Part shown: one piece after another, positions 22,701 to 63,440 of the stretch | Layout of the letters: each line of letters begins with the position of its first letter | Position numbering within the stretch: position 1 is the stretch's first letter | Origin: Elusimicrobiota bacterium | GTDB lineage: Bacteria; Elusimicrobiota; Elusimicrobia; Elusimicrobiales; UBA9959 | DNA: 64,000 bases | Direction: 5' to 3' | Assembly (NCBI GenBank): GCA_016208085.1 | Contig: JACQYT010000080.1 | Span: forward strand, 56,514 to 120,513 | Notes under the pieces: generated by a model | What the model saw: only the letters and a program-made list of their open reading frames with translations | The model's database searches: none | Told to the model about the DNA's origin: nothing | Made by a program: the position numbers and the translations under genes

Positions 22701-25700
22701 TTTTGTCGGTGGATGTGTCTTCCGACGGCAACCGGTTGGTATATATCCTGGACCCTTCAAACTGGACCCCGTACGCAGAACTTCACACGTTCAATCTTTC
22801 CACCCTGCAAGATGCCACTCTGCTGGGCAACGATGGTATTCGGGATTTTTACGCGCGATTTTCCCATGATGGCCAGAAAATAATATGGACAAAAGATACA
22901 AACTCCGAACCTTACGATTTCGGAATGCATATCTGGAAAATGAATACGGACGGTTCAGGCCAAACCGATCTGCACTCCGGGGCTAATTTTGAGGCTGACT
23001 ATCCTGTGGCTTCGCCTGATGACAGCCAAATCGTTTTTGCGCGCAGGGATTCGGCGTCGGGACCATGGAATCTCTGGAAGATGGGCTTTGACGGGACGAA
23101 TCAGGCTCAAATAACAACTATCGGAGGATGTATTGATACGGACTGGGGCCTGGCCGCCGCGCTATCTTCACCAACCGGCTTCATCTCAGGCAAGGTTACA
23201 AAGGCGGACGGGACAACGGCCATCCTGGGCGCAAAAATTGAAGCTTTGCAAAGCTCGGTTGTCAAAGCCTCGTCAACAGCGGACGCAAGCGGCAATTACT
23301 CTTTGACATTGGCCGCCGGAACTTATAACGTCCGTGCTTCTTCAACAGGTTATGTTGCCGCCGTCCAGACAGGTAAAACGGCAACAGCCGGCCAAACCGC
23401 CACGGTCAATTTCAACCTGGACACGGAGATCGTCGGCCAGCCTGACCTGGTTGTGTCAACTATTACCGTGGACTGTTCCACTCCGACAATCAACCAAACC
23501 GTTAATGTGATTATAAAGGTCAAAAACCAGGGCACGGCCGGCGCCAACGGGACTTTCTGGGTGGATTTCTACAAAAATCTCTCCCAGTCGCCGGCTGTGT
23601 CCCAACTGGGCAACGCTTACTGGTCTCAGAGCCCTCTGGAGGCCGGCGCGACAGCCCAATTGACTACGAGCTTCCATTATGACGGGGGCCAGTACAATCT
23701 TTACGCCCAGATTGACTCGGAAAACAACATAGCGGAAAGCAATGAAAGCAATAATATTTATGGACCGGTTTTAGTCAAAGAACAGATGGCAGGCGGGTGG
23801 ATCAGCGGCAAGGTTATTTCCAGGGCCGACGGCAAGGCCGTCCAGGGGGCGGCCATTGCCGCAAAACAGGGCGGGACAGCAATTAACAGTGCGGCGACAA
23901 ATATCGCCGGCAATTATGTTCTCGCTATTGCCTCAGGCGCTTATACGCTGGAAGCGACGGCTCCCGGTTATCTTTCCTCGTCAACGGCTGTTTCTATCCA
24001 GCTGGAGGAGACGAAATACAAAGACTTCGCCCTCTCGCCTATAACGGGTCAGGGCGTGATTACGGGATTTGTCACAAAAGCCGACGGGGTGACTCCCATT
24101 CCGAATGCCGCCATAAAATTGTCAATCGGAGCAATAGTCGTTGACACGAGGCTCGCAAACGCCATCGGCGCATACAGATTCATAACCTCCACCGGCACAT
24201 ACAATCTGGAGGCTAACGCCGCCGGTTATACAACAAAAGTTAACTCAAATATAACTATTTTGGACAACCAGGCGACAGCGGTTAATTTCGCCCTTGCTCT
24301 GGCCAATACGCCGCCGGAGCCTGTTTCTGAGCTTGCCGCTTTGCCTTTGGACAACCTGAAGGTCTTTTTGTCCTGGACCCCGTCCGTGTCCGGCGACGTT
24401 TTCTACTACCGCATTTATTACGCGGCCGGCGCGCTGGATTACCAGACGTTGTATGCCTCGGTAAAGGATACAATCAGCCATCTGGAGCGCTCCTGGACAA
24501 GCCCGGCTTTGAACCGCTCCCAAAATTACTATTTTTCTGTAAGGCCGGTGAATGTTTTTGAAGTGGAAAACCTTGATACCAACAATGAAGTGGAAAACCT
24601 TGATACCAACAATATCGTCAGCGCCGCTATCTCGGAAACCGTCTCCGGCGTCAAAGCGGCGATAAAAGTTCCACAAACAGGCAAAAAGGTCTCCGGCAAC
24701 AGGCTTACCATCGTTGCCGAAGCCGTCCAGGAGCCCTTAAATGTAAGCAAGATTAAATTCATGTACAAAGCGTCCCATCTTGAGGACTGGGAAAGCGTGC
24801 CCGCGGCCGACGCCAGGCATCCCAATCCCGCCGTTGTCTGGCCTTATTTTATCCACTGGGATCTTGCGGATGTTTCTGGCAATTCTTTGCCGGACGGCAA
24901 CTATGATTTAAAAGCCGTCGCATACGATAAAAATAATAACCCGGATCCGTCGCCGATGACCGTGACCATATCAATCAATCATGTGGATAAGGATATAGAG
25001 GAAAAACTGGTTGACGGAAGCCAGCGCAAGACGGAAAAGATACACAACGAGAAAGACAACACAATTAAGGTGGGTGGGGCGGAAGCGGACGCCCTTACCG
25101 AAGTGAAAGTGGCTGCCGGCGCTTTGAACCAGTCGTCGGATTATATCAATGTGACGATTAATCCCTCTCTGGCCTCAAGACCTATCGGAAATTTGGCGCA
25201 AGTGCTGGAATCGCGCGATGTCTTTTTGGACAGCGGCCAGAAAAATCTGTCCAAAGAATCGGAAATAACCATTCCCTATAACGACGCGAATAATGACGGT
25301 GTCGTTGACGGCACAAATATCAAGGCGGATGATTTGCAGGTTTGGTATTTTAATGAAGCGACAAAGTTATGGAAAAAGGAAGATCACTTCACAATAGACA
25401 AGACCAGAAAGGTCGCGACTGTGCTTGCAAGTCATTTCTCCACTTTTGCCCTGGTTTCTTCCCTGGGTGCGGATCTTTCCAATATTAAAGTATATCCCAG
25501 TCCCATCAAGGTTCATGACGGTCATGACAGGGCGACTTTCGCGGGGCTTACCGGCAAGGATGTGAAACTAAGGATATTCAACGTGGCCGGAGAGATCGTC
25601 TTTGAGAAAGAGCATATCTCGACCCCCACCTACGACTGGCTGCTGGTAAACAACAGCGGGAGAGCTGCGGCCGGCGGGGTTTATATATATGCGCTGACCG

Positions 25701-27178: not shown

Positions 27179-28420
27179 TTAATGGAATATTTTTTTAAAG
27201 TCTTTGAAGAATGCCGGGTAGGATTTTTTTACGCAGCCGGGGTTCTTTATTTTAACGGGTTTCGCCGCAAGTATCGCCCCCACGGCGGCCGTCATCGCTA
27301 TGCGGTGGTCGTTGAACGTGTCAACGGCCCTGCCGCCGGCTATCGTCTGCGGGCCCTTGATCACAAGGCTGTCTTTGCCTGCTCCGGCCTTCAGGCCCAG
27401 GGACATGAAAAGCGCCAGGGTGGCCCGTATCCTGTCCGATTCTTTGAGTTTCAGTTCTCCGATCCCGTTTATGACGGTCGTGCCGCTGGCGCGGGCGGCT
27501 AAAAGCGCCAGCAGCGGCAACTCATCCACCATGGCCGGCACTTCGCCCGGCCGTATCCGGATGCCTTTGAGCCGTGAACTCAAAACCGTAAGGTCACCGG
27601 CCGGTTCAGGCGCATAATGCGTCTTTCTGACGGATATTTTCGCGCCCATTGCTTTAAGTATTTTTACCAGGCCGGTCCTGCCGGGGTTCAGTCCGACATT
27701 TTTTATCGTGAGCCTGAAGCCTTCCAGCAGGCAGGCCGCGGCCATAAAAGGCGCGGCCGAAGAGAGGTCTCCCGGCACGCGTATCTCTTTCGCCTTGAGC
27801 CGCCCCGGCTTTAAATAGATAGTCAGGCCGGCCGCCGAGATACGGGCGCCGAGATGTTTAAGCAGGCGCTCCGTATGGTCGCGGGTCCGGAAGCGCCCGG
27901 TTATGGAGGTGGCGCCTTGCGCGTAAAGAGCGGCCAGCAGTATCGCCGATTTTATCTGCGCGCTGGGGACCGTGAGCCTATGAGCCGCGCCTTTTAAAGC
28001 GGAGCCTGAGATATATATCGGCGCTCTGCCGCCGGAAAGGCGGATTTTGGCGCCCATAAGTTCAAGCGGCGCCGCTACCCTGGACATGGGTCTTTTTAAA
28101 AGGGAGTCTTCGCCGGTTATAGCCGAATCAAAATCCTGGCCGGCCAGCAGGCCGCTCAGCAGGCGCAGGGTAGTGCCGGACGCGCCGGCATTAAGAGTCC
28201 CTGTCGGTTTTTTCAGGCCGCCAAGCCCCAAGCCTTTTACCAGCAGGCGGTTTTTTGAAGCGGAAATCCCGACCCCGAGTTTTTTCAGGCAGGCGGCGGT
28301 GGCCAGCGTGTCTTCGCAGAGCGAGGGGTTGTCTACGCGCGTGTTCCCGTCCGCTATGGCGGCGAGTAGCAGCGCCCTGTGGGTTATGGCCTTGTCCGGC
28401 GGCGGAATATAAGGTTTCAT
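27179..28420 (-). CDS. aroA: 3-phosphoshikimate 1-carboxyvinyltransferase (EPSP synthase)
   Basis: MKPYIPPPDKAITHRALLLAAIADGNTRV, LNAGASGTTLRLL, and the C-terminal DHRIAMTAAV. The start is trimmed by 40 codons because the track extension is a read-through of the repeat 28421..28540. Confidence 0.9.
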   Translation of the reverse strand: MKPYIPPPDKAITHRALLLAAIADGNTRVDNPSLCEDTLATAACLKKLGVGISASKNRLLVKGLGLGGLKKPTGTLNAGASGTTLRLLSGLLAGQDFDSAITGEDSLLKRPMSRVAAPLELMGAKIRLSGGRAPIYISGSALKGAAHRLTVPSAQIKSAILLAALYAQGATSITGRFRTRDHTERLLKHLGARISAAGLTIYLKPGRLKAKEIRVPGDLSSAAPFMAAACLLEGFRLTIKNVGLNPGRTGLVKILKAMGAKISVRKTHYAPEPAGDLTVLSSRLKGIRIRPGEVPAMVDELPLLALLAARASGTTVINGIGELKLKESDRIRATLALFMSLGLKAGAGKDSLVIKGPQTIAGGRAVDTFNDHRIAMTAAVGAILAAKPVKIKNPGCVKKSYPAFFKDFKKIFH

Positions 28421-28601
28421 AAGTTGACAAGTTGATAAGTAGGGGAAGTTGATAAAGCGGGGGACAGTTGACAAGGCTGGGGAAGTTGATAAGTAAGGGA
28501 GTGATTTACTCTGTTCACTTATCAACTTGTTGTTTCCCACTTGTCAACTTATCAACCGCCGGTTTCACTTGCCAACTGTTGTTCCCCACTTTGTCAACTA
28601 G
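28421..28601. repeat. ~180-bp imperfect palindrome built from 5 + 5 inverted copies of AGTTGAYAA / TTRTCAACT
   Basis: The left arm has 5 copies of AGTTGA(C/T)AA separated by G-rich spacers. The right arm has 5 copies of the complement. The centre lies near 28505. Confidence 0.85.
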
Positions 28602-31448
28602 TCAATTGGAGCGAAGCAAAAACCTTGCACTAGATTTATAAAACGACTTACATATTATTAAAATAAGTCCAAGCAAAGTTATAAGTAAGATCAAACTTGG
28701 TTCTGTCATTCGTTGAGTGTCTTCTCCTAAGTCTAACGATTGGTTGCTTAAAAGCAATTTGTCCTGTTTTTGTTTCAGAATCGCTTTTTGTGCTTCGTTT
28801 TCAACTACAATATATGAAGTTATAGGTGTCATTATTTTTGAGATAAAACTATGCTTGACTAAATTAAGCCATTCTTTGCCGGATGTTTCAGGATGGAAGG
28901 TTTGTGAAATCCATTTGCCTTGCATTATCAAACCTGTCTGCCAACTTTTTTCAATTATTTCCGAATTATTAACTTCAAATAATGTCTCCTTTAAAACAAT
29001 ACTCGGTTTATTGTGATTTGGTAAATAAGCTATTGGTTTTTGTTTGTTGGGATATGCCAATACCTTATGATTAAAATTTAACTCTAATGTGCCGGTAAGC
29101 GGTATTTTAGGATTTGACAATAAAGAATGAGATTCCAAACCCCATTTTTGGTTAATCACGTAGAACAAATTATTTTCAGGATAAGCTATTTTAAAATCGG
29201 AAAAGTCTTTTTCAATTATTGCATTTTCAATACTATCAGTTACTACCACAATAACAGGATAAGCATTGTTCCTGTCTTTATATGAATTAAATAAAACCGT
29301 CCTAATTGCTCTATCCAAAAAAAACCCGCCATCAAAAATCTGTTGGTCAAATTTCTGTCTCCAATTATTGTCTAAAGGAAGGCTGCGGGTATATGTGTTT
29401 GCAAAACTTATTTTGGCATTCTCCTTGCCAATTAGATTTTTACTTAACAGCGATTTAATTCTTTGAGCAAAATCTTCCTTAAAATTTTCTTTTCCAGATG
29501 AAATGTCAACTATAAAGTGATAATACGGCTTTCTCTGAATTTTTTTCAACGTTGTCTTTTCTTTTGCTGAAACATATACAATATTTTCATTTGAACTGGT
29601 AGTAGTTCTTATTTCTGAGTGCTCTTTGTAATTTCCTAATCTTAATGTGGTTCCATCAATAGTAATTTTAACCGGCTCTTGATGGATAAATTCTATTCCT
29701 GTTTTTCGAGTTTCACCTTTAGAAAACGGAAAAACTCTGAAAACCACTTTATTGCCTGACAGATAATGTAAAATACCAGGGTCCCTATTTTCATTTCTGA
29801 TTTGTGAGAATACCCATATTGCAGATTTTTTCTCCGCTAATATACCCATTTCCTTTTTATTTCCAACATATAAGTAATAATCGCTAATCCAACATCCGAT
29901 GGGCAGTTCAATTGTTGTGGCATATTCTGAAAGCTGGGTGGTTTCACTATGATTTGTAATTTCTAAATCCATCCAACTTGTCCAAGCATTTTGTTTTTCG
30001 TCAAAAGTGCTGCTTGAATTTATCTTTGAGATTTTGACTTGAGTATTGCCGATGTTTTCAGCCCGCAATTTAAATGAGGTTTTGCCGTAAAAAACATTTT
30101 CAATAGTGTTAATCTTTGAATCAGACAGGGTAAGGTTGTCTAAAACCAGCCAATTAAAATAAGAAGACAGATAAGGGATTTGTTTTTCAAAAAGCAAATT
30201 TAAATTTCTGTCTTTGTGATATTTGACTACATCTAGTGTTTTTGAAAGAGAGATTTTGTCAATGTTATAGGTTTTAGAATAGTCCGGTTTATACAAGTAC
30301 TCAAGCGTTTCGTTTAATGCGCGTCTGTCCATTAAATAAGTGGCTGTGATAAATAGTGGTAATACAAAAAAACCTGCTACTGAAAGGAATACCGCTAATT
30401 TTTTAGATAGATAGGTTTGTGGGAATTTATAGTCATTTAAAAGTTCGTTTAAATGGATAATAAAAAGCGCCAACGGCGTAAGCATTAAGAAGCCTGTCCC
30501 GACAGCAGCAATTGCAATGATTGAAAATGGCAAAAAGGGCAGGAAAACCAAGAAAAAATAAAAGGTAAAAGCAAACGTTAAACTCCTTCCTGCAAAAAGA
30601 AATAGTCTATACAATTTATTCTGCGAATTCGGCAGGCAAATAAGCAATCCATTTATTACTGCAAGAATGTAAAACCAGATATTGCTAAAATCACCGAAAG
30701 TGCCTGAATTTTCAACTCCAAATTTATTAAAAAAATATTCCTTGTTATTTAATGCTAAACCTAAAAGTGGAAATATAAGAGCAATGGGGATTTTCCAAGC
30801 CAACTGATATTTAACCCACATAGCGGCTTTTTTAAGACCCAGGATGTAAATCCCCCTAATTAAAAAGAATAAGAAGATAAGTGTCGCGATAATTGCCAGA
30901 ATAACCATCGCGTGCATGCTAAAATTTGAATCAACAGGTTTCCACAAGGGGAATATTAGTTGGGTAAATAAATACCAGGAAATAGGAATAATTAGCGCTA
31001 TTAAAAAATTCTTCCAAACCTTTTGTTCTTTATTCTCAGGCGTTAGAAGTGCAACAAGTGTAAAGAGAGAATATGCAAGTGTCGGCATTAAGAAGGTTCC
31101 GACATACAAGATCATATTTGTTGGAACCATCCATTGCGGGATATCAAAAGGGATTATTACATCAAAATAATTTCCATAGAGATATAAGAATGATATGTAA
31201 CTTAACAATGCTGTAATGGAATAGAATGCCGAAACTTCTTTCTTCTTAATTACAAGGTCAACAGCATAAATAAAATTGAGCGTGCCCAATATCGCTAATG
31301 TGCCGCCAAATTTTTTCCAAAGACCTATGCTCTCAGCCGATAAAAGACTTTTGATAATATTGTATTCTCCCAAAAAGATAGCGAACAGTATTCCGATTGG
31401 AATAGCATTGATTATAAACAACCATTTTGGATTAAGTGAGTTTCGCAT
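28602..31448 (-). CDS. MSEP-CTERM-type exosortase substrate: polytopic membrane N-terminus plus a VIT-like/extracytoplasmic domain plus a C-terminal sorting signal
   Basis: 948 aa. There are ~12 predicted TM helices in the first ~370 aa. The C-terminus is MTEPSLILLITLLGLILIICKSFYKSSARFLLRSN (M-T/S-E-P, a TM helix, then a basic tail). Strongly AT-rich. Confidence 0.7.
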   Translation of the reverse strand: MRNSLNPKWLFIINAIPIGILFAIFLGEYNIIKSLLSAESIGLWKKFGGTLAILGTLNFIYAVDLVIKKKEVSAFYSITALLSYISFLYLYGNYFDVIIPFDIPQWMVPTNMILYVGTFLMPTLAYSLFTLVALLTPENKEQKVWKNFLIALIIPISWYLFTQLIFPLWKPVDSNFSMHAMVILAIIATLIFLFFLIRGIYILGLKKAAMWVKYQLAWKIPIALIFPLLGLALNNKEYFFNKFGVENSGTFGDFSNIWFYILAVINGLLICLPNSQNKLYRLFLFAGRSLTFAFTFYFFLVFLPFLPFSIIAIAAVGTGFLMLTPLALFIIHLNELLNDYKFPQTYLSKKLAVFLSVAGFFVLPLFITATYLMDRRALNETLEYLYKPDYSKTYNIDKISLSKTLDVVKYHKDRNLNLLFEKQIPYLSSYFNWLVLDNLTLSDSKINTIENVFYGKTSFKLRAENIGNTQVKISKINSSSTFDEKQNAWTSWMDLEITNHSETTQLSEYATTIELPIGCWISDYYLYVGNKKEMGILAEKKSAIWVFSQIRNENRDPGILHYLSGNKVVFRVFPFSKGETRKTGIEFIHQEPVKITIDGTTLRLGNYKEHSEIRTTTSSNENIVYVSAKEKTTLKKIQRKPYYHFIVDISSGKENFKEDFAQRIKSLLSKNLIGKENAKISFANTYTRSLPLDNNWRQKFDQQIFDGGFFLDRAIRTVLFNSYKDRNNAYPVIVVVTDSIENAIIEKDFSDFKIAYPENNLFYVINQKWGLESHSLLSNPKIPLTGTLELNFNHKVLAYPNKQKPIAYLPNHNKPSIVLKETLFEVNNSEIIEKSWQTGLIMQGKWISQTFHPETSGKEWLNLVKHSFISKIMTPITSYIVVENEAQKAILKQKQDKLLLSNQSLDLGEDTQRMTEPSLILLITLLGLILIICKSFYKSSARFLLRSN

Positions 31449-31977
31449 TATGTCGTGTTAATTCAGTAAGTGTAAAATTAACCCCTAAATAAAAGATTAT
31501 CAGAAAAAAAAGGTAGATAAAAGTCCCTTCGGCTTGGTGTAACCAGGAAATGTGTCCGTCTGCCAGTTTCGCTCCTGATCTGTGTATAAAAACAGAAAAT
31601 AAAATTCTGGAAGTATTTGCAAAAATTGTAAAAATGTATGCGGCAAGCAGCGTAATTGGTAAAGCGGCTATTTTTCTGTTTCTGTCTTGTAAGAATTTAA
31701 TAACCGCGAATGCAAGCATTATAAAACACAATATCCAAAAGTTGAAACCTGAACAAGATTTGTCAATTACAACGTTCAGTTTATCGTGAAAATATCCACC
31801 GTCATTGACACAAATCGAGTTTGAGTTTGTAATTATTTCAATGATTTTGTCGGTTGGTTTAAGTAGAAAATAAAGGTCGGTATTGTCGGCAAGCGTATAA
31901 GCGAATTTTAAAAGTATAAAAACCGCTATCACTGTAAAATAGTATGGTGTATTTCTGTTCGCAGTCATTTTTGTCAA
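31432..31977 (-). CDS. Small exosortase-family transpeptidase (XrtK-like)
   Basis: The exosortase catalytic triad motifs are visible: IDKSCSGFNFW (Cys), FANTSRILF (Arg) and WLHQAEGTFIY (His). 181 aa and polytopic. It overlaps the substrate gene by 17 nt. Confidence 0.75.
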   Translation of the reverse strand: MTKMTANRNTPYYFTVIAVFILLKFAYTLADNTDLYFLLKPTDKIIEIITNSNSICVNDGGYFHDKLNVVIDKSCSGFNFWILCFIMLAFAVIKFLQDRNRKIAALPITLLAAYIFTIFANTSRILFSVFIHRSGAKLADGHISWLHQAEGTFIYLFFLIIFYLGVNFTLTELTRHNAKLT

Positions 31978-42195: not shown

Positions 42196-43014
42196 ATGTT
42201 CATTGAAACGCACGCGCATCTGAACGACAAAGCGTTTGACGCGGACCGGGACGCCGTGCTGGATAAATGCCGCGCCGCCGGCGTGGACAAGCTGGTGGAA
42301 ATAGCCTGCGCCGCGGGGGAATGGGGGGCAGGGGAAAAACTCGCGGCCGCGCGGCAAGGGGCCGTGTTCTGCGCCTTCGGCCTGCACCCGGAAAACATTG
42401 AAGACGCCGGGCCCCGGCAGCTGGCAGAACTGCCGGCCTGGCTTGAGAAGAAATGCTGCGTGGCGCTGGGCGAGATAGGCCTTGACTACTGGTGGAAGCC
42501 GGAAAAGAAAACCGAACAGCTCCGCCTGCTGGCCGAGCTGCTGCCGCTCTCGGTAAAATTCTCAAAGCCGGTGGTTTTTCATACGCGCAACGGCCGGGAT
42601 TTGAAAACCGGCAACGCATATTTTGAGCTGGCGCAGGAACTTAAAGATTGGACGTTCAATAATAAAAAAAAGGCGCGCGGAGTTTTACACTGCTTTTCCG
42701 GCGGCTGGGAAGACGCCAAAGCAGCTCTGGACCTGGGCCTGCTGCTGGGCATAAACGGCACGTTCACCTATAAAAACAACGGGCCGCTGCGCGAGATAGT
42801 GAAAAAGGCCGGGCTTGAAAATATCGTGCTTGAGACCGATTGCCCGTACCTGAGCGTCCAGAGCATGCGGGGCAAAAGGAACGACCCGTCATATATACCG
42901 GAGATAGCCCGGGCCGCGGCAGAATATCTGAATATTAAAGTTGAGGCGCTGGCTGTTGCCACCACCGCCAACGCGGTTGAACTGTTTTTCCGGAATTGCA
43001 AAAATCTCCCCTAA
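42196..43014 (+). CDS. tatD: TatD-family metal-dependent hydrolase/DNase
   Basis: MFIETHAHLND (HxH), FHTRN and ETDCPYL motifs. The start is trimmed from the 338-aa track ORF to the conserved N-terminus. Confidence 0.85.
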   Translation: MFIETHAHLNDKAFDADRDAVLDKCRAAGVDKLVEIACAAGEWGAGEKLAAARQGAVFCAFGLHPENIEDAGPRQLAELPAWLEKKCCVALGEIGLDYWWKPEKKTEQLRLLAELLPLSVKFSKPVVFHTRNGRDLKTGNAYFELAQELKDWTFNNKKKARGVLHCFSGGWEDAKAALDLGLLLGINGTFTYKNNGPLREIVKKAGLENIVLETDCPYLSVQSMRGKRNDPSYIPEIARAAAEYLNIKVEALAVATTANAVELFFRNCKNLP

Positions 43015-43047
43015 CCCCTCTTTTCAAAAGAGGGGAATACTCGCACA

Positions 43048-43287
43048 ATGAACAAGGAGCTGAAAAAAGCGGTAAAAGAGCGCATCCTGATCTTTGACGG
43101 GGCGCTGGGCACCTATCTGGGAAAGTTCGGACTTGTCCACGGAGATTTTAAAGGCCACGAGGGATTGAACGAATATCTTTCCGTTTCAAGGCCCGAGGTC
43201 ATAAAACAAACACATTCCGATTACCTCGCCGCGGGCGCCGACGTCGTGGAAACCAACACCCAATATCTCCTCGGTGAAACTGGCTAA
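43048..43287 (+). pseudogene. metH: metH 5' fragment (first ~70 codons of the homocysteine-binding domain), separated from the rest by a frameshift and small deletion
   Basis: ILIFDGALGTYL...HSDYLAAGADVVETNT is a MetH/BHMT N-terminus. The frame then runs QYLLGETG* instead of the expected FGAN... Confidence 0.7.
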
Positions 43288-46200
43288 AGAGGCCGTCGCG
43301 CGCTGTCGGACCGCGGGCAAGCCCAGGTTCGTGGCAGGCGCGGTGGGCCCCACCAACAAGGCGCTGTTCGTGACCGGCGGAACCGATTTTGACGAATTCA
43401 CAGAAGTCTATTTTGAGCAGATAACGGCCCTGCTGGAAGGGGGGGCGGACCTGCTTTTAATAGAGACCGCGCACGATATCCTGAACATCAAGGCCGCGCT
43501 GGCCGCCGCCTCAAAAGCTTTTGCGGCTGCCTGCCGCAAATTGCCGGTGATAGTTTCGGTAACCATGGACAGGAAAAATACCATGCTGAGCGGCCAGGAC
43601 CCCCGGGCCGTCCATGTGGCCCTGGAGCATTTCCCGCTTTTCGCGCTGGGTTTCAACTGTTCCACCGGCCCCGAAGACATGGCCTTGCGGCTTGAAGAAC
43701 TGTCCGGGATGTCCGGCTTCCCCGTTTTGGCCATGCCCAACGCCGGGCTGCCTGATGAGAACGGCAGGTATAATGAAACCCCGGAGAAATTCGCCCGGAC
43801 CATTAAAAATTATGCCCTTGGCGGGTTTATCAATATCGCCGGCGGCTGCTGCGGCACCACCCCCGCTCATATAAAAGCGCTGGCCGAAGCGCTGAAGGGC
43901 GTTGCGCCCCGGCGTCATAAGAGCGGCCAGGCCTGGGCGGTTTCCGGCATAGAGCCGCTGTTCTATTCGGAGATTGACCCGCCGCTCCTGGCCGGCGAGC
44001 GCAACAATTCCATAGGGTCAAAAAAATTCCGCGACGTCGTGGCCGCCGGCGGGTGGGACCAGGCCGTGGAAATGGCGAAAGCGCAGGTGCGCGCCGGCGC
44101 GCATATCCTGGACGTCTGCCTCTCAAACCCCGACAGGAACGAGCCGGCGGACGTCAAAATATTCCTGCCGATGCTCTTCCGCGCCGTAAGGGCGCCGGTG
44201 ATGATAGATACCACGGATATCAAAGTGATGGAAGAGGTTTTGAAGCTGGCGCCGGGCAAGTGCGTATTAAATTCGGTCAATTTTGAGTTCGGTCCCCAAA
44301 AGCCCGCGAAGGCCGCAGAGCTTGTGAAACTCTACGGCGCGAAACTCGTCGTTGGGCTTATAGACGAGGCTAAAGAACAAGGCCTGCCGCTGACCGCCGG
44401 ACGCAAGCTCGCTATAGCGCGCAGGGCGTATGACTTTTTCACCAACAAGTGCGCGCTCCGTCCCGAAGACATAATATTCGACGCCCTGGTGTTCCCGGTC
44501 GGGGTCGGCGGGGAATACGCCCGGAGCGCCGGCGAAACGCTTAAAGCCGTGGAACTGATAAAAAAAGAATTCCCGCTTACAAAAACGGCGCTGGGAGTGA
44601 GCAACGTGTCTTTCGGCCTGCCGCCCGAAAGCAGGGAGATCTTGAACGCCGTTTTCCTGCATCACGCCATAAAGGCCGGGCTGGACATCGCCATCGTCAA
44701 TGTCGAGAAACATAAACGATATTCCCTGATACCCGCGCGCGAGCTGGAACTGGCCGAAAACCTGATATTCGCCCGCGCGCAGGACGGAGCAGCGGTATTT
44801 GCCGGCTATTTCAGGGAGAAAAAGAAGCGCGCGCCCGCTCAAGGCGCCGCCGCGCCGCCAGGCTTCGGCTTCATCCCTCATCCTTCATCCCTCATACCTC
44901 ACTTTGGAGCTCAGGCCGCGCCTTCTTCCCCCCAAGAAAAGCTTTACCGGCTGATAATGGACGGTTCAAAAGCGGAGGTGCAGGACACCGTGCGCGAACT
45001 GCTGGCCGCCCGGAGCCCGCTTGAGATAATAAACGGCCCGGTGCTTAAAGCCATGGCCGAAGTGGGAAAATTATTCGCCGAAGGCGAGCTGATAATAACC
45101 GAAGTCCTGCAGAGCGCCGAAGCGACTGCATCCGCCGTGTCCGTTTTAGGGCCGGCGCTGAAGGCGGGGAATGTCCCCAGGCGGGGAAAACTCCTGCTTG
45201 CCACCGTGAAGGGAGATGTGCACGATATAGGGAAGAATCTTGTCCATATTATTTTTGAATCCAACGGCTTTGAGGTGATAGACCTGGGCGTTAAAGCCGC
45301 CCCCGAGACCATAACGGCTTCGGCCCTGGCCGAAAAACCGGATTTTATAGGGCTTTCCGGCCTGCTGGTCCGCTCCACGGAGCAGATGGCGATAACGGCC
45401 AGGGAACTGGCCAAAGCCGGCGTTTCGGCGCCGTTGCTGGCCGGCGGGGCCGCGCTGACCGAAAAGTTCGTCGCCGCCGGTATGGCGCCGCTGTATAAGG
45501 GGCCGGTGTTTTATGCGCCGGACGCGATGGACGGCCTTAACACCGCGCTGAAACTTATCATGGATAAGGGTATAGGGGATAGGGTAGAGGGTATAGGGTG
45601 CGGATGGCAGGGGAAGGGACCGGAGATACAAGACGAAAAAATCAAGTTGAAAAGGGCGCGGGCCAACGCCGGTTTCCGGCCCGAGGAACTGCCCGAGCCC
45701 AAAGACCTCGCGCGGCACTTTTTCGGGGAATACCCCCTGCCGGAGTTGTTCGCCTGGCTGGACGAGGACCTTTTCAACCTGCGGTTTCTGAAGCTTAAAA
45801 AGACCGACGGGAAGAAGGCCGGCGGCGCAAAAAAGCTTCTGGCGGGTATAAAGGACGAAATAATAAAGGGTGGGATAATAAAACCACGCGGCGTGTACCG
45901 GTTCTTCCCGGCGGCCGCGGACGGAGACAGCCTGCTGTTCTACGGTCCGGACGGCAGGGCCATGGAGACGATAAATTTTCCGAGGCAGCACGACGGCGAG
46001 CGGCTCTGCATAGCCGATTTCATCGCGCTTCACGGCGGGCAAAAGGACCACGTGGCCCTGCTGGCCGTATCCTGCGGCGAAGGGATCTCAGAATTTTCCC
46101 GCGGCGAAAGGGAGAAAGGCAACTATTTAAAATCATATATCGTCGAGGCGCTGGCCTTGAGCCTGACGGAAGCCTTCGCCGAGGTCCTGCATCACAGAAT

Positions 46201-46450
46201 ACGCGCCGACTGGGGCTTTGCCGAACCAAAAACAGGCGGGCCGTTGCACCGCTCGCATTACCGCGGCAGAAGATATTCGTTCGGCTGGCCGCCCTGCCCG
46301 GACCTCTCCGGCCAGAGGAAGCTTTTCAATATGCTGAAGCCCGAAGGCGATGTGGGAATAAAACTGACGGAGCATTACATGATGGAGCCGGAGGCATCCG
46401 TTTCCGCTTTCGCGCTGCATAATCCGAAAGCGAAGTATTTTAATATATAG
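43274..46450 (+). CDS. metH: Cobalamin-dependent methionine synthase MetH (remainder: Hcy domain C-part, pterin-binding, B12 cap + B12-binding, AdoMet-activation domains)
   Basis: GGCCGTTPAHI (Zn site), a pterin-binding barrel, GDVHDIGKNL (DxHxxG), GLSGLL (SxL), and the activation domain RYSFGWPPCPDL. It is in a different frame from 43048..43287. Confidence 0.9.
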   Translation: MKLAKEAVARCRTAGKPRFVAGAVGPTNKALFVTGGTDFDEFTEVYFEQITALLEGGADLLLIETAHDILNIKAALAAASKAFAAACRKLPVIVSVTMDRKNTMLSGQDPRAVHVALEHFPLFALGFNCSTGPEDMALRLEELSGMSGFPVLAMPNAGLPDENGRYNETPEKFARTIKNYALGGFINIAGGCCGTTPAHIKALAEALKGVAPRRHKSGQAWAVSGIEPLFYSEIDPPLLAGERNNSIGSKKFRDVVAAGGWDQAVEMAKAQVRAGAHILDVCLSNPDRNEPADVKIFLPMLFRAVRAPVMIDTTDIKVMEEVLKLAPGKCVLNSVNFEFGPQKPAKAAELVKLYGAKLVVGLIDEAKEQGLPLTAGRKLAIARRAYDFFTNKCALRPEDIIFDALVFPVGVGGEYARSAGETLKAVELIKKEFPLTKTALGVSNVSFGLPPESREILNAVFLHHAIKAGLDIAIVNVEKHKRYSLIPARELELAENLIFARAQDGAAVFAGYFREKKKRAPAQGAAAPPGFGFIPHPSSLIPHFGAQAAPSSPQEKLYRLIMDGSKAEVQDTVRELLAARSPLEIINGPVLKAMAEVGKLFAEGELIITEVLQSAEATASAVSVLGPALKAGNVPRRGKLLLATVKGDVHDIGKNLVHIIFESNGFEVIDLGVKAAPETITASALAEKPDFIGLSGLLVRSTEQMAITARELAKAGVSAPLLAGGAALTEKFVAAGMAPLYKGPVFYAPDAMDGLNTALKLIMDKGIGDRVEGIGCGWQGKGPEIQDEKIKLKRARANAGFRPEELPEPKDLARHFFGEYPLPELFAWLDEDLFNLRFLKLKKTDGKKAGGAKKLLAGIKDEIIKGGIIKPRGVYRFFPAAADGDSLLFYGPDGRAMETINFPRQHDGERLCIADFIALHGGQKDHVALLAVSCGEGISEFSRGEREKGNYLKSYIVEALALSLTEAFAEVLHHRIRADWGFAEPKTGGPLHRSHYRGRRYSFGWPPCPDLSGQRKLFNMLKPEGDVGIKLTEHYMMEPEASVSAFALHNPKAKYFNI

Positions 46451-48882: not shown

Positions 48883-48987
48883 ATGCCGGGTAAGGTTATT
48901 GTATGCCTTTATCGGGTTTTAAGCAATATCCCCCTTTTAAAAAGGGGGAAAGAGGGGGATTTTTTTATAGGCGGGCTGAAATTTCAG

Positions 48988-49037
48988 CTAGTGTAGCGTC
49001 CCGCAAATAACTAGACATTTGCGGGACGCTACACTAG
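48988..49037. repeat. REPIN-like perfect 21-bp inverted repeat with GTAG head (CTAGTGTAGCGTCCCGCAAAT / ATTTGCGGGACGCTACACTAG)
   Basis: Arms at 48988..49008 and 49017..49037. The 9-bp direct repeat TAGGCGGGC lies at 48968..48976 and 49035..49043. Confidence 0.8.
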
Positions 49038-49104
49038 GCGGGCGGTTGCCGGATGAACCGTTATAATGTTTTTGTATAATGGGGGTTAAGGATTAAGGAG
49101 CTTT

Positions 49105-53589: not shown

Positions 53590-56500
53590 ATGAACGGAGA
53601 CGGCAGGCCGGAGATGCTGGGGGGTACTACTTCCGGCAACCAGATACAGGCCTTTGACCGTTTTGCCAGGTGGGTCTGGAGATACATACTGGGCAGTCAT
53701 GCTATCTCCACACCGGCGGTTGAACGGCTGACGGCTGACGGAACTCCTGCGGTGTTTGCAGGCAGTTTTGACAGGTATTTACGTTCCATTGACGGGAAAA
53801 CCGGGGTTTTGAACTGGGCATTCCCCGCTTATAACTGGATCTGGTCCTCTCCCGCTGTGGCGGATCTGGATGGCGATGGAGGCAAAGAAGTGGTGTTTGC
53901 GTCAGATACAGGCGCGCCGAACTTATACGTATTAAACGCATCTCAGGGGGCCCTGAAATGGAGCGCGTCCATCGGAGGTTCAGCGCGGGCTTCCGCAGGC
54001 ATTGCGGATTTGAATTCCGACGGCATCAAAGAGGTATTGATCGGCTCGGCCGGCGGCGCTTTCTATTGCCTGAACGGCAAGACAGGAGCGGTTCAATGGA
54101 CCTTCCAGACAGGCGGCGAAATCGTTTCCTCGGCTGCTATCGGAGACCTGGACGGAGACGGGGATTTGGAGGTGGTATTCGGTTCTACCGACGGTTTCCT
54201 CTACGTTCTGGATGGAAAAGGCGTTTTGCTTTGGAAGACGAACCTTGGGAGCCCGGTTTACTCTTCACCGGCTCTGGCCCGGCGGGGCAGCGATACGAGA
54301 CTGGATATCTATATAACCACCCTGGCCGGGAGACTGGCTATTTTGAGGGGAACTGACGGGTTCCTGCTGGGAGGATTTCAGGTGGATGCCCAGGTGGTGT
54401 CCTCGCCTGTCGTAGCAGACATAGACGGAGACGGAAAACTGGAGATATTCTTCCATGACCGCAAAGGGGACACCAACTCTGTAATGTCGGGCGACAGGTT
54501 CTGGGCGGTCCGGGACGTAAATTCCTCGGTTTCTCCGTATGCGCGGGAATGGCCCATGTTCAGGCGGGATTCAGCACATACCGGCGTCTATCCTTTGCCT
54601 GATTCGCCTCCGGCAAAAGTCACCGGTCTTTCAGTGAACGCTCCGGCCGAGGGCGGCAGGCTTGAACTTCTCTGGACCGCGAATGCCGAGCCCGACATCG
54701 CTTCGTACAGAATCTACCGGAACGGGGAATTTAAAATTCAATTAAGCTCCTTATCATACACGGACACGGGGCTTGTCGATGGAACGACCTGCACCTATCA
54801 GGTCGGCGCCGTTGACAGGTCGGGCAATGAAGGGCCGAAGTCCGATTCGGTATCCGGCATGCCAAAGGACCGATTAGCGCCTGTTTCAAGGATCGTGTCG
54901 CCTTCAGACGGGACAAAACTTTCCGCTGCAAGCGTGACTATTTCCGGCACAGCCCGGGATAACGGCGTTGCAGGGGTAAAAAAGGTTGAAATCCGCATAT
55001 TTGATTTACAGGAGGGCGCCACGTGGTTTTTGGCATCTGAAACATCTGCCATATTTAATTTTGAAATGACTGGTTTAAAGGATAACCGCACGTATCAGAT
55101 TGATTCAAGGGCTGAGGATTGGGAAGGCAACCGGGAACAGACGCCTGTTGAGGTTCAGTTCAATGTGATTCTGCCCCCGCTCGCAATAACCGGGCTTACA
55201 GCAATCGTACATGCAACCGGCAATTCAGCAACACTTAGCTGGAACCCTGTGTCTGAAGCGGATATTGCAGGATATAGAATTTATTCCGGAGACGGGAATT
55301 TAATTGCAACAATTTCGACAACAACTTTTGAATTGACAAACCTGACCTATGGCGCCGGCTATACTTATTATGTAAGCGCCGTGGATGCAACCGGACTGGA
55401 AAGCCCGCGAGCCGGTGTTTCATTTACAACGCCTGTGAACGGTTCAGCCAGGGCCGTTATAGGGGTACCTAAAGACGGCAAAAAAATCTGGGGCAATGCA
55501 GTGACCATTAAGGCTGACGCTACGGATTCCGCTTCCAAAGTTCAGTTCCAGTGCCGGAAGGAAGGAGAAGCTGTTTACACAGACATCTCGTCCGCCGACT
55601 CAAACGCGCCGTATGCCGTTTATTGGAATGTGAGCGATGCCCGGATCAGCACCGGCACTTACTATCTGAGAGCGGTGGCTTTTGACTCAGACGGCCTGCC
55701 GGATTTGTCTCCTCCCGAGATTCGCGTACTCGTGGATGACGCAAATGCGGACATTGTGGAAGACGGAAACCCGGAAGTGGATCCAAATGCGCAGCACAGG
55801 AAGATGGAAAAACTCATCTCAGACAATAACGCGCAGAAAATCGAGACTCTGGACGGCACGAATATTGTCATTCCGCCGGGAGCAGTGCCGGAAGGCGAAC
55901 AAATCCAGATCCAGGTTGTCGGCAATGTTGAAGCCTCTCTTCAAGCCGGCGGCAAGATTTTAAAACCTGCGGGCGTATTCCGCAGGTTTACGTTCATCAG
56001 CGGCGCCACGCAATTCAAAGGGAAACTGACTCTAACCCTTCCTGTGCCCGACGGGAATGGAGACGGCATTGTGGACGGGACGGACATCAAGATAAGCTTG
56101 CTGAAGGTTTATTTCTTTTCAGAATCCAAAGGAGAATGGGTTGCCGTGGAATCTTTGAATTCAAATACTCCGGCGCCTTTGTCGGCTGTCGTAACTTCGG
56201 CATCTCCTGCGCAGAATCAGAAATCTGTTTCCGTTCAGGTGGATCACTTTACGCTTTTCGGTCTGTTCCAGGAACAGCTGGTTTCGGAGGAGTTGCGGTT
56301 AGGCGAGCTGTATGTCTACCCGAACCCGGTCCGGGGCAATGACCGGCCGACTTTGCATATAGAAGCCGGAAAGGCGGACCGGCTGGAAATCCGGATTCAT
56401 GACCTTGCAGGGGATCTGATTCACTCCATAGACATAAATTCTCTTCCTTCCATTGTAGATGGTAAGTATGTCTACAGATATCAATGGGACACAGCCGGCG

Positions 56501-58908: not shown

Positions 58909-59050
58909 CGCCATAAGCCGTATGCTTTAGGCCATAGGCAGAAAGGCTGCCATAAGCTTTAAGCCGTAAGCCATAAGCTTTATTAAGAAAGGTTCTTTAC
59001 GGCTTAAGATATCGGTTTCTGCGTATGGCATATGGCATATTGCCTACGGC
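58909..59050. repeat. Imperfect palindrome built from GCCATAAGC / TTAAGCCGTAAG words
   Basis: The left arm GGCCATAGGCAGAAAGGC...TTTAAGCCGTAAGCC pairs with the right arm TTTACGGCTTAAG...GGTTTCTGCGTATGGC. It is preceded by the GC-rich hairpin GGCGCGGCG-TAAGGG-CGCCGCGCC, which spans the M3 stop codon (58885..58908). Confidence 0.7.
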
Positions 59051-59071
59051 AAAAAAGACGAAGTCTTTTTT
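59051..59071. terminator. A/T-flanked hairpin AAAAAAGAC-GAA-GTCTTTTTT
   Basis: 9-bp stem with symmetric A and T runs, 3 nt before the next start codon. Confidence 0.4.
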
Positions 59072-60125: not shown

Positions 60126-60202
60126 GTAAATAGGTAGATACTGTTGATAAGGTGATACAGAAAAACTCCGTATTAACGTATTCACGTATAAACGTATCAA
60201 CG
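60126..60202. repeat. Word-repeat hairpin region including 4 tandem 8-mers CGTATNAA
   Basis: CGTATTAA CGTATTCA CGTATAAA CGTATCAA lie at 60169..60200. Upstream, GTAGATACTGTTGATAAGGTGATACAG carries the complementary GTTGATA / TGATAC words. Confidence 0.7.
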
Positions 60203-61369: not shown

Positions 61370-61415
61370 CTGTAGAAGTCAGAAGTAAGATGTCAGAGGT
61401 CAGAAATAGGAAGTT
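61370..61415. repeat. GTAG-headed word repeat upstream of asnB (CTGTAGAAGTCAGAAGTAAGATGTCAGAGGTCAG...)
   Basis: 32 nt (61372..61403) match the reverse complement of 63409..63440 at 28 of 32 positions by hand count. Confidence 0.85.
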
Positions 61416-63323
61416 ATGTGCGGAATCTGCGGAATATATAACTACAAAACGGACGAACCGGTCGAGCGCGAAGAACTTGAAAAAATGAACAGTCTTCTCG
61501 TCCACCGCGGGCCGGACGACGCGGGCTTTTACCAGCAGGACGGGATAGGCCTGGCCATGCGGCGCCTGTCCATAATAGACCTTTCAAGCGGGCATCAGCC
61601 GATCCCGAACGAGGACGGTTCCGTCTGGATTGTCTTTAACGGCGAGATATACAATTTTCAAACCCTGCGCGAAGAATTGCTGGCCACGGGCCACCGGTTC
61701 AAAACAAAGTCCGACACTGAAACCATAGTGCATCTTTACGAGGAAAAAGGGCTTGCCTTTGTCACATATCTGCGGGGTATGTTCGCCATAGCGCTCTGGG
61801 ACTCCCGAAGAAAGCGCCTGGCGCTCGCCCGCGACCAGGTCGGCAAGAAACCGCTTTACTACGCCGTGAACGGCTCTTCAATAGCTTTCGCTTCCGAATT
61901 GCGCCCGCTTACGACCGTCAAATGGTTCATGCGCGACCTGGACCCGGCAGCCGTGGACGCCTATCTCACTTTGCAGTATATACCGAGCCCGCTCAGCATA
62001 TTTAAGAACGTCAGGAAGCTCGAGCCCGCCTCCATGCTGGTGGTTTCGGACGGCGCGGTCAAGAGCGAGAAATACTGGGACCTGCCGCTTGCGGCCGAGA
62101 AGCTGGACTATATGCCGCTCGCTGAGATAAAGGAGCGGCTTTACAGCGAGCTTTTTGAGGCCACAAAGATAAGGCTGATCTCTGAAGTGCCGCTCGGGGC
62201 GTTCCTGTCCGGCGGGATAGATTCCTCCATCGTGACGGCGCTTATGGCAAAGAGTTCGCCGGACCCGGTCAAAACCTTCTCAATAGGCTTCAAGGAGGCG
62301 GAGTTCTCGGAGCTCGGCTACGCCAGGCAGGTCGCGCGGATGTACGGCACAAAGCACACCGAGTTCATAGTGGAAGCCAATATGGCGGACGTCTTTGAGA
62401 AGCTGGTCGCGCATTACGGCGAACCTTACGCCGACGCCAGCGCTCTGCCTTCTTATTTTGTCTCAAGAGAGACGCGCAAAGCCGTCACTGTGGCTTTAAA
62501 CGGCGACGGCGGCGACGAGAATTTCGGCGGCTACCTGCGCTATATGGCCATAAAAATAGATTCCGTCTGGGGACGCACGCCGGCGGCCCTGAAAAGAGCG
62601 CTGCTGAACTTCACGTACTTGTTCCCGAAGAAGGCCCCTTACAACGTGTTCTGGCGCGCGGAAAAGTTCATGAAAGCGTCGCTGCTCGAAAGCCTGCCCC
62701 TGCGCTATCTCTCGACGGTCGCGTTTTTCGGCCCGAACGACAAGGCAGGGCTGTTCAGCAGGGAATTCATCAACGCGCGCTGCGGCAGCGCCGATTACGC
62801 GGAAAAATATATAGCCGGTCTGTTCGAAATACCGGCGGGGCAGGACCTGCTTAATAAGCTCATATACGTCGACTTCCGTTCCTATCTGCCGGAATGCCTG
62901 ATGACAAAAATGGACATAGCCTCTATGGCGAATTCGCTGGAAACCAGATCGCCTTTCCTGGACCAGAAGGTGATAGAGTTCGCTTTCAGGCTGCCTGGCA
63001 GCCTGAAACTTAGGGGCTTGAGGGGAACCAAGTGGATACTTAAGGAAACTTTTAAGGATATGCTTCCGGCGCGGATTTACAAAAGGGGCAAGATGGGCTT
63101 CGGCATACCGCTGGGCCCGTGGTTCAAGGGAGAGCTGAAAGACCGCTGGGCCGGGACCTGCCTGTCCGAGAAGGCGCTCTCGCGCGGCTATTTCAACAGG
63201 GAGCACCTGTTCAGGATCTGGGACGAACATCAGAACGGCTCGCGCGACCACGGCTATCACCTGTGGGCGCTGCTGATGCTTGAACTATGGCATAATCAAT
63301 TCGCCGACGATTTTAAGCTGTAG
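61416..63323 (+). CDS. asnB: Asparagine synthase (glutamine-hydrolysing)
   Basis: N-terminal nucleophile MCGICGI and the PP-loop FLSGGIDSS. 635 aa. Confidence 0.9.
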   Translation: MCGICGIYNYKTDEPVEREELEKMNSLLVHRGPDDAGFYQQDGIGLAMRRLSIIDLSSGHQPIPNEDGSVWIVFNGEIYNFQTLREELLATGHRFKTKSDTETIVHLYEEKGLAFVTYLRGMFAIALWDSRRKRLALARDQVGKKPLYYAVNGSSIAFASELRPLTTVKWFMRDLDPAAVDAYLTLQYIPSPLSIFKNVRKLEPASMLVVSDGAVKSEKYWDLPLAAEKLDYMPLAEIKERLYSELFEATKIRLISEVPLGAFLSGGIDSSIVTALMAKSSPDPVKTFSIGFKEAEFSELGYARQVARMYGTKHTEFIVEANMADVFEKLVAHYGEPYADASALPSYFVSRETRKAVTVALNGDGGDENFGGYLRYMAIKIDSVWGRTPAALKRALLNFTYLFPKKAPYNVFWRAEKFMKASLLESLPLRYLSTVAFFGPNDKAGLFSREFINARCGSADYAEKYIAGLFEIPAGQDLLNKLIYVDFRSYLPECLMTKMDIASMANSLETRSPFLDQKVIEFAFRLPGSLKLRGLRGTKWILKETFKDMLPARIYKRGKMGFGIPLGPWFKGELKDRWAGTCLSEKALSRGYFNREHLFRIWDEHQNGSRDHGYHLWALLMLELWHNQFADDFKL

Positions 63324-63440
63324 AAGTAAGAAATCAGAAGTAAGAAAAGCAAAACTTAAAACCGATAAAGCAAACTATTGGATTTATAAAGTGCGGTTTC
63401 CACAGAATCTTACCTCTGACATCTTACCTCTTACTTCTAT
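63318..63440. repeat. REPIN-like pair downstream of asnB: a direct unit CTGTAGAAGTAAGAAATCAGAAGTAAGAAAAG and an inverted unit CTTACCTCTGACATCTTACCTCTTACTTCTAT
   Basis: The units lie at 63318..63349 and 63409..63440, separated by ~60 nt. The first unit contains the asnB stop codon (TAG of CTGTAG). Confidence 0.8.

Follow-up and report, generated by a model that had tools for sequence, protein, structure and literature searches.

Heptanucleotide repeat arrays in two inter-domain linkers of a cobalamin-dependent methionine synthase gene from Elusimicrobia

Tandem arrays of heptanucleotide units, the short tandemly repeated repetitive (STRR) sequences, occur in heterocystous cyanobacteria such as Calothrix PCC 7601 and Nostoc/Anabaena. 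The words classically associated with them are CCCCAGT, TTGGTCA and CAACAGT. Heptamer arrays are over-represented in several bacterial lineages, their origin and function being unexplained (PMC4692102; PMC4679880). They favour about four units, lie between open reading frames (ORFs) that are aligned, and rarely occur in coding sequence; those built on GGGAATC or GGGGA(C/T)T in Xanthomonas and Nostoc are sometimes inverted and vary widely between close relatives, and arrays of the GGGNATC type form G-quadruplex (G4) structures in vitro (PMC4692102). TAACTGA arrays, found in Beggiatoaceae, Cyanobacteria and Bacteroidetes, have 2-6 copies and are mostly intergenic, just upstream of start codons; their rare ORF-internal copies lie at protein peripheries outside domains, are limited in orientation by stop codons and encode peptides with a 7-residue period (PMC4679880). 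No report of heptamer arrays in Elusimicrobia or in the linkers of cobalamin-dependent methionine synthase (MetH) was found in the literature searched. Here, we describe two such arrays inside the metH gene of an uncultured Elusimicrobiota bacterium, carried by a stretch of 64,000 nucleotides of contig JACQYT010000080.1 (the window, to which coordinates refer unless another locus is named). Very probably, these are heptamer simple-sequence arrays of STRR-like type, tolerated as translated passengers in permissive, disordered linkers of the enzyme.

The main metH ORF (43274-46450, + strand) encodes 1058 amino acids (aa) and carries, in order, the Pfam domains S-methyl_trans (PF02574), Pterin_bind (PF00809), B12-binding_2 (PF02607), B12-binding (PF02310) and Met_synt_B12 (PF02965). 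The protein matches the full-length MetH structures 8g3h and 8ssc (Thermus), and the five MetH modules follow one another in the order Hcy, Fol, Cap, Cob and AdoMet, the Hcy module being broken by a 59-nt deletion. It is 100% identical to P0001, a protein from an Elusimicrobia metagenome-assembled genome (MAG) whose deposited annotation has the same shortened form. The nearest orthologue, P0002, has 85% protein identity and is encoded on a contig, L001, syntenic with the window at 87% nucleotide identity. Array 1 (44872-44902, + strand), of CATCCCT type, reads CATCCCT CATCCTT CATCCCT CATACCT CAC and encodes IPHPSSLIPH; Tandem Repeats Finder (TRF) gives it a period of 7 with 4.4 copies and 87% matches. 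Array 2 (45562-45600, + strand), with about five units of GGGTATA type, reads GGATAA GGGTATA GGGGATA GGGTAGA GGGTATA GGGTG and encodes DKGIGDRVEGIGC (TRF period 7, 4.7 copies, 84% matches). A sequence-only reading of this DNA had pointed out both arrays. Both are present as it had spelled them, array 1 starting one base later (44872, not 44871), and the peptides that it had assigned, FIPHPSSLIPHF for array 1 and DKGIGDRVEGIGCG for array 2, are correct in the metH frame. Its placement of the arrays on either side of the B12 module is also borne out by Pfam: array 1, in the Fol-to-Cap linker, precedes the cap domain (B12-binding_2, residues 554-625), and array 2, in the Cob-to-AdoMet linker (linker 2), follows the B12-binding domain that begins at residue 639.

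The abundance of period-7 arrays was assessed with a lag-p self-match scan for periods 4-12, run against 30 dinucleotide-preserving shuffles at score thresholds of 9 and 11. At threshold 9, the window contained 7 period-7 arrays compared with 0.5 in the shuffles, and at threshold 11 it contained 4 compared with 0.03; periods 4-6 and 8-12 were near chance, save one period-8 array. The two metH arrays are the highest-scoring period-7 arrays of the 64-kb window, with lag-7 scores of 15 (array 1) and 14 (array 2). The over-representation in Elusimicrobia rests on the 64 kb of the window, with 9.4 period-7 arrays per 100 kb, and on 110 kb sampled from five relatives, with 11.8 per 100 kb and 0-1.8 for other periods. 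The density reached 18 per 100 kb in control loci from Nostoc/Anabaena, the classical STRR organisms, and 1.7 per 100 kb in 1.4 Mb from other phyla, where the arrays were concentrated in some Acidobacteriota and one Anaerolineales locus. The control loci came from a contig scan made for the MetH alignment with the universal patterns GDVHDIGK and ETNTFG and belong mostly to distant phyla, the Anaerolineales and Nostoc MetH genes with arrays being among them; among the matches listed in that scan, one was an Elusimicrobia locus, at 45% identity.

The likeness to STRR sequences thus lies in tandem 7-nt units present in a few to a dozen copies, at many loci per genome and mainly between genes. The density of 9-12 per 100 kb found here compares with 18 in the Nostoc/Anabaena control loci, and a Nostoc MetH carries an array in the same linker as array 2. 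At least three to four head-to-tail 7-nt copies, enrichment of period 7 and a mainly intergenic location near stop or start codons of co-directional genes, i.e., the generic STRR-like features, were all found. In contrast, the host belongs to another phylum, the units are more degenerate and the words are different: the classical STRR words were not seen in the window or in the Elusimicrobia arrays, a TTGGTCA-type word occurring only in the Nostoc control locus L039. Compared with the GGGAATC and GGGGA(C/T)T arrays of Rehm et al. (2015), array 2 is likewise made of heptamers of GGG plus 4 nt with five G tracts, in the typical range of four to five units, and its intergenic relatives here lie between aligned ORFs near stop or start codons and are sometimes inverted, whereas most arrays here lack G-tract words, array 1 and the relatives' linker-2 arrays among them (PMC4692102). 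Indeed, at least four G3 tracts spaced by 4 nt are present in array 2, which has five, and not in the complement of array 1, which has two. The TAACTGA repeats described by MacGregor (2015) share with the present arrays the location outside domains, the stop-limited orientation and the 7-residue-period peptides, but one word dominates there and many occur here; moreover, the ORF cases are terminal there, whereas those described here lie inside the protein, in linkers between the domains of a conserved five-module enzyme, and one linker is occupied repeatedly across lineages (PMC4679880). The arrays share the generic features of heptamer arrays and not the specific word sets of the known systems.

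Array 1 is contained in a 58-nt segment (44857-44914, + strand; GCCAGGCTTCGG..CTTTGGAGCTCAG) that is missing in the DNA of L001 and L087. The segment is bordered by two direct copies of the 8-bp sequence GCCGCGCC (44849-44856 and 44915-44922, + strand), of which L001 has a single one at this site. Together with one copy of GCCGCGCC, it makes a 66-nt, 22-codon in-frame insertion that encodes the peptide AAPPGFGFIPHPSSLIPHFGAQ. In a 21-sequence MetH alignment, these 22 residues of the Fol-to-Cap linker are found only in the window (0/20 other orthologues), and they align to a gap in the two Thermus structures. As a consequence, this linker has 71 residues here, compared with 47-55 in every other orthologue with a delimitable linker. 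Since the segment is missing in every outgroup, the difference corresponds to an insertion in the lineage of the window and not to a deletion elsewhere. The alignments clearly indicate that one insertion event of 66 nt, in frame, brought array 1 into the gene once the lineage had separated from its nearest known relative. A search of metagenome contigs with a 24-mer beside the insertion site returned one contig, 99.99% identical to L001, and thus no lineage closer than 87%, so that the insertion is not datable more finely. A search of the window and of 87 loci for a further copy of the 58-nt insert found none, the nearest lead to a donor being an intergenic hairpin of L001 (19130-19290) with AAGGATA/AAGGATG words, the same word type as array 1. 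The ends of the insert match at 5/9 positions, the mismatches being all transitions, and its sense strand folds with only -7.4 kcal/mol.

The history of array 2 is different. Its DNA is conserved in L001 (12513-12544) with the same unit count, and because only array 2, and not array 1, is common to L001, array 2 predates array 1. A linker-2 heptamer array was found at the equivalent position in 5/5 Elusimicrobia loci, with a word that differs per locus: AGGGTAT in the window/L001 type, CAGTGGT and CGAGCCA in L083, ACAAGTC and ACAGGTC in L084, AGAGGTC in L085 and GCCATAA/GCCGTAA in L086. The same linker position is therefore taken by arrays of different words in related lineages, and two of the word types of the relatives recur in intergenic arrays of the window. 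Between proteins with about 80% identity in their other parts, linker 2 shows 12-44% identity only, and it is not alignable to the Thermus structures. Across the linker 2 of 47 Elusimicrobia orthologues, residue identity was 0.134 at lag 7 and 0.124 at lag 14, compared with about 0.08 at other lags, a pattern typical of 7-nt units whose three frames are all read. Coding arrays were also found in more distant MetH genes. That of an Anaerolineales MAG (L048) has two in-frame arrays (11648-11679 and 12324-12355), one in a cap-domain loop and one in the Cob-to-AdoMet linker, and that of Nostoc sp. FACHB-110 (L039) has an in-frame array of five ACACCCC units (12348-12383) in the Cob-to-AdoMet linker. 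Two of these three arrays, whose words are CAACGTT, AGCGGTC and ACACCCC, thus lie in the same linker as array 2. Slippage with rapid word turnover is a possible description of linker 2. The proposal that repeats had invaded the coding sequence is supported by the array-1 insertion, missing in 20/20 orthologues, and by the different words carried by linker 2 in five loci. Of the two linkers, that of array 1 holds a lineage-specific insertion, in the window only; array 2 is shared with L001 and sits in a hypervariable linker.

Both arrays fall in parts of the protein that are predicted to be permissive. In an AlphaFold2 model built on the orthologue alignment (mean predicted local distance difference test, pLDDT, of 80), only residues 244-249, 520-550 and 766-796 fall below 50. 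The second of these segments holds the whole array-1 insertion, and the peptide of array 2 (residues 764-777) opens the third. The arrays are thus translated into peptides with a 7-residue period (3 x 7 nt = 21 nt) within segments that the model predicts to be disordered. The way in which the reading frame is maintained was examined for 12 coding arrays from the window, its relatives, L048 and L039. In nine of them, the sense word is stop-free in perfect tandem, and the antisense orientation would carry stops in seven of those nine. In the other three, the very codon that would become an in-frame stop is changed by a substitution: TAG>GAG in the window and in L001, TAA>TAT in L086. Hence, the frame is kept open either by the orientation of the array or by a point substitution at one would-be stop. 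This is illustrated by both metH arrays. The word of array 1 is free of stops when read on the sense strand but not on the antisense strand: AGGGATG tandems contain an in-frame TGA, so that array 1 is translatable only in the C-rich orientation. In array 2, GAG stands where a perfect array would give an in-frame TAG. The opposite composition of the two arrays results from this stop avoidance, which fixes the orientation of array 1. Selection at the protein level was also considered as a source of the periodicity and was rejected, since a period of 7 nt is not divisible by 3, non-coding spacers contain the same words and the peptides lie in predicted-disordered segments.

According to the explanation that we favour, the lineage carries about 10 heptamer arrays per 100 kb, mostly in short co-directional spacers and often as inverted pairs. 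Within metH, arrays would survive only where the protein takes arbitrary sequence, i.e., in the Fol-to-Cap linker (array 1) and in the Cob-to-AdoMet linker (array 2). They would be near-neutral passengers of a genome-wide array-generating process, either the insertion of pre-formed elements or slippage, and selection would purge any insertion that shifts the frame, brings in a stop or breaks up a domain. Arrays 1 and 2 would then be unpaired with each other and would have no role specific to the B12 module. Several observations weigh against this explanation. Near-identical words recur between genomes in 12/170 pairs, compared with 3.5 expected, and the linker-2 position is occupied in every Elusimicrobia lineage examined; a purely neutral passenger model leaves both unexplained. 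As to the origin of the arrays, two clean insertion events were seen, with no linked enzyme and no donor copy of the 58-nt insert in the window and 87 loci. The 64 kb hold no canonical G4 motif other than that of array 2, which may therefore have a structural function in DNA or mRNA. Within the metH mRNA, the best duplex partner of each array is the other one, though from composition alone. Finally, with its 59-nt frameshifting deletion, metH may here be a recent pseudogene, or the contig may be misassembled.

In another reading, the arrays travel on small mobile hairpin elements, or arise as such elements, which duplicate 8 bp of their target and repeatedly write new 7-residue-period peptide linkers into proteins. 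They would then have landed repeatedly in the Cob-to-AdoMet linker of MetH, in at least three phyla (Elusimicrobia, Anaerolineales and Nostoc), and words common to genomes would reflect a sequence-specific machinery. We regard this as a tentative possibility, on the unlikely side. Comparison of the window with L001 shows two clean insertions, each with an 8-bp duplication. The first is the array-1 insert. The second lies directly after the metH stop codon of L001 (13399-13524), where GGTTCAN heptamers make up a 126-nt hairpin that has GTAACT/AGTTAC as its termini and a minimum free energy (MFE) of -44.6 kcal/mol and is flanked by a perfect 8-bp duplication, ATATAAGA. This hairpin is missing in the window, where 12 nt separate metH from the S1-domain gene, and by its sequence it looks like the footprint of a miniature inverted-repeat transposable element (MITE). 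At other intergenic sites, heptamer hairpins are present in one of the two genomes and unrelated hairpins in the other. The 8-bp duplications, the differences of sites between genomes and the shared words therefore point to the insertion of pre-formed array elements, and the arrays may arrive at their sites already assembled. The likeness to MITEs or repetitive extragenic palindromic (REP) elements consists of the perfect 8-bp repeats GCCGCGCC around the array-1 insert, of ATATAAGA on both sides of the L001 hairpin, and of presence or absence that differs between genomes 87% identical. However, the array-1 insert shows no convincing inverted repeat at its termini, a further copy of it was found neither in the window nor in the 87 loci, no transposase is linked to it, and its interior is a degenerate tandem array and not a conserved element. 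As a family signature, the termini GTAACT...AGTTAC were found in one perfect case only and so do not hold generally.

The array-bearing linkers could alternatively hold structured elements, namely a G4 in array 2 and a C-rich tract in array 1, kept at domain boundaries because they pause ribosomes or polymerases for co-translational folding of the B12 module or for cofactor loading. This model-based idea draws on the position of both arrays at domain boundaries, on the conservation of array 2 in L001 and on the ability of GGGNATC-type arrays to form G4 in vitro (PMC4692102). A canonical G3N1-7 x4 motif occurs only once in the 64 kb, both strands considered, namely at 45568-45598 in array 2, where there are five GGG tracts and 4-nt loops, and the predicted MFE of the array-2 neighbourhood goes from -6.4 to -14.9 kcal/mol when quadruplexes are allowed (ViennaRNA). 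However, array 1 occurs in one lineage only, and its complement, with two GGG runs only, folded no G4. Moreover, the linker-2 words of other Elusimicrobia (ACAAGTC, AGAGGTC, GCCATAA, CGAGCCA and CAGTGGT) are without G tracts, so that a quadruplex cannot be the common feature of the site. Pausing is accordingly judged improbable.

Another explanation is that metH is here a decaying pseudogene, or is misassembled, the arrays being tolerated since the gene is dead or the sequence wrong. The 59-nt deletion (junction at 43260/43261, + strand; L001 10214-10272 in the DNA alignment) costs about 20 codons, removes Pfam profile positions 54-78 and shifts the frame within the Hcy domain. It separates an N-terminal fragment (43048-43287, + strand; MNKELKK...DVVETNT, then out of frame up to a TAA), which matches positions 1-53 of the S-methyl_trans profile, from the main ORF with the remainder of Hcy followed by Fol, Cap, Cob and AdoMet-activation (Pfam). 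Against decay as the cause, the other 1058 codons are open and the array-1 insertion is a multiple of 3 and stop-free. In each of the three gene segments, the ratio of nonsynonymous to synonymous substitution rates (dN/dS) of the window against L001 lies at 0.09-0.20, so metH has been under purifying selection, and the deletion may therefore be either a recent lesion that leaves a pseudogene or an assembly error. Furthermore, array 2 is in frame in the intact gene of L001, for which independent assemblies agree, and seven further loci have arrays in intact MetH genes. A dead or misassembled gene thus has little chance of being the reason why the arrays are tolerated.

The sequence-only reading had regarded the two arrays as approximate reverse complements and suggested that they may be the arms of a long-range RNA or DNA stem enclosing the coding segment of the B12 module, like the intergenic word hairpins. 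Intergenic arrays of the window do form inverted pairs, and arrays 1 and 2 are mutual best partners in the metH mRNA (-34 to -38 kcal/mol, ranks 0-10 of about 1080 windows of the message), because array 1 is C/U-rich and array 2 G/A-rich. However, their RNA duplex of -34.2 kcal/mol compares with -30.7 +/- 3.9 for composition-matched shuffles (z = -0.9, 19% of them as good), and their best ungapped Watson-Crick match of 16/31 compares with 16.3 +/- 1.5 (67% as good). By these two measures, no complementarity beyond base composition was found between them, and the match is no better than that of random G/A-rich against C/T-rich sequence. True inverted pairs of the window instead reach 20/27 and 20/24 Watson-Crick matches (0 of 1000 shuffles), with duplex z of -5.9 and -5.3. 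Pairing is not conserved either, since array 1 is missing in the nearest relative, which already has the older array 2. None of the relatives has both arrays, array 1 being missing in L001 and in 20/20 aligned orthologues, and other lineages carry unrelated linker-2 words and nothing at the Fol-to-Cap linker. Finally, the arrays lie 650 nt apart within a translated ORF, and the orientation of array 1 is accounted for by stop avoidance. Reverse complementarity is thus not confirmed, and a stem around the B12 module is largely refuted and highly improbable.

Heptamer simple-sequence repeats drive phase variation in other bacteria (Haemophilus), and the natural MetH of about 838 aa without the AdoMet domain in many Elusimicrobia resembles a truncation at linker 2, but it is scarcely credible that the metH arrays are contingency loci in which the gain or loss of one 7-nt unit shifts the frame at a linker and switches between full-length and truncated MetH, e.g., without the AdoMet reactivation domain, since the units are imperfect (84-87% matches), which suppresses slippage, the unit count of array 2 is equal in the window and L001 at 87% nucleotide identity, the independent assemblies of the L001 organism are identical (L001 = L002) without unit-number variation, and the one frameshift of metH is not at an array. 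These shorter proteins (P0054-P0108) end about where linker 2 starts in the long form.

With tolerated heptamer arrays as the preferred explanation, the locus adds a further phylum, Elusimicrobia, to the hosts of such arrays. The polarised insertion with an 8-bp duplication, in a gene of essential type, argues that at least some arrays arrive pre-formed and are not grown by local slippage. The recurrent occupation of one inter-domain linker is a notable addition to what is described for heptamer arrays, and the finding is not a new regulatory RNA structure. For MetH itself, both linkers that flank the Cap and Cob modules accept 10-22 arbitrary residues. Because coding arrays must stay in frame and stop-free, linker 2 provides a natural experiment from which the turnover of arrays could be measured and mobility told apart from slippage. 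If mobile hairpin elements were involved, inter-domain linkers would be remodelled by mobile or simple-sequence elements.

Besides metH, every spacer of the + strand co-directional cluster at 56.9-63.9 kb carries a 7- or 8-nt array. An inverted heptamer pair of GCCATAA-type against TATGGCA-type words lies between co-directional genes at 58910-59051 (TRF; duplex z = -5.9), and a second one, of AGAAGTA-type against TCTTACC-type words, at 63322-63438 (TRF; duplex z = -5.3). According to TRF and the ORF layout, an 8-nt array of CGTATTAA type is placed directly upstream of a start codon at 60169-60202, and a heptamer array of AGAAGTC/AGAGGTC fills the spacer between a stop and the next start at 61374-61405. 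The arrays at 61374 and 63322 have a common left end, GCTGTAGAAGT, and flank the gene at 61416-63323. Inside an ORF, an ACGGCTG array of 2.6 units (53724-53741) was judged too short to interpret. A search of the window with Rfam at gathering thresholds returned two tRNAs only and nothing at any array.

In other phyla, heptamer-rich Acidobacteriota are represented by L013 (1717-7227) and L028 (4154-4359), with the words AAGGACT, AGGGGCT, CAGTGGC and CAAAGAC; L028 has inverted heptamer pairs just downstream of metH. A CAGTGG-type word is present in Acidobacteriota and in the Elusimicrobia locus L083, and a CAGCGGT variant in the Anaerolineales locus L048.

Other repeats and insertions were found in the window. 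A 50-nt insert with CCCCTCTTTTCAAAAGAGGGG (42998-43047), not present in L001, is placed shortly upstream of the metH ATG and represents another class of intergenic hairpin. Near 48940 (48935-48960), a similar CCCCCTTTTAAAAAGGGGG is followed by a perfect inverted repeat of about 21 bp, CTAGTGTAGCGTCCCGCAAAT... (48990-49040); at the orthologous spot, L001 instead has a heptamer hairpin of GCCATAA type. At 24559-24613, TRF reports a tandem duplication of 27 nt, TGAAGTGGAAAACCTTGATACCAACAA x2, which is perfect. Between two minus-strand genes, the spacer at 28420-28600 forms a large hairpin made of AAGTTGAYAAG words with a period of about 18 nt (TRF 28429-28493, 3.6 copies) and of an inverted partner with CTTATCAACTT words. 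A segment of about 3.5 kb (28457-31970) is missing at the syntenic position of L001; it holds a 948-aa ORF without Pfam match and a 181-aa exosortase (EpsH)-like fragment.

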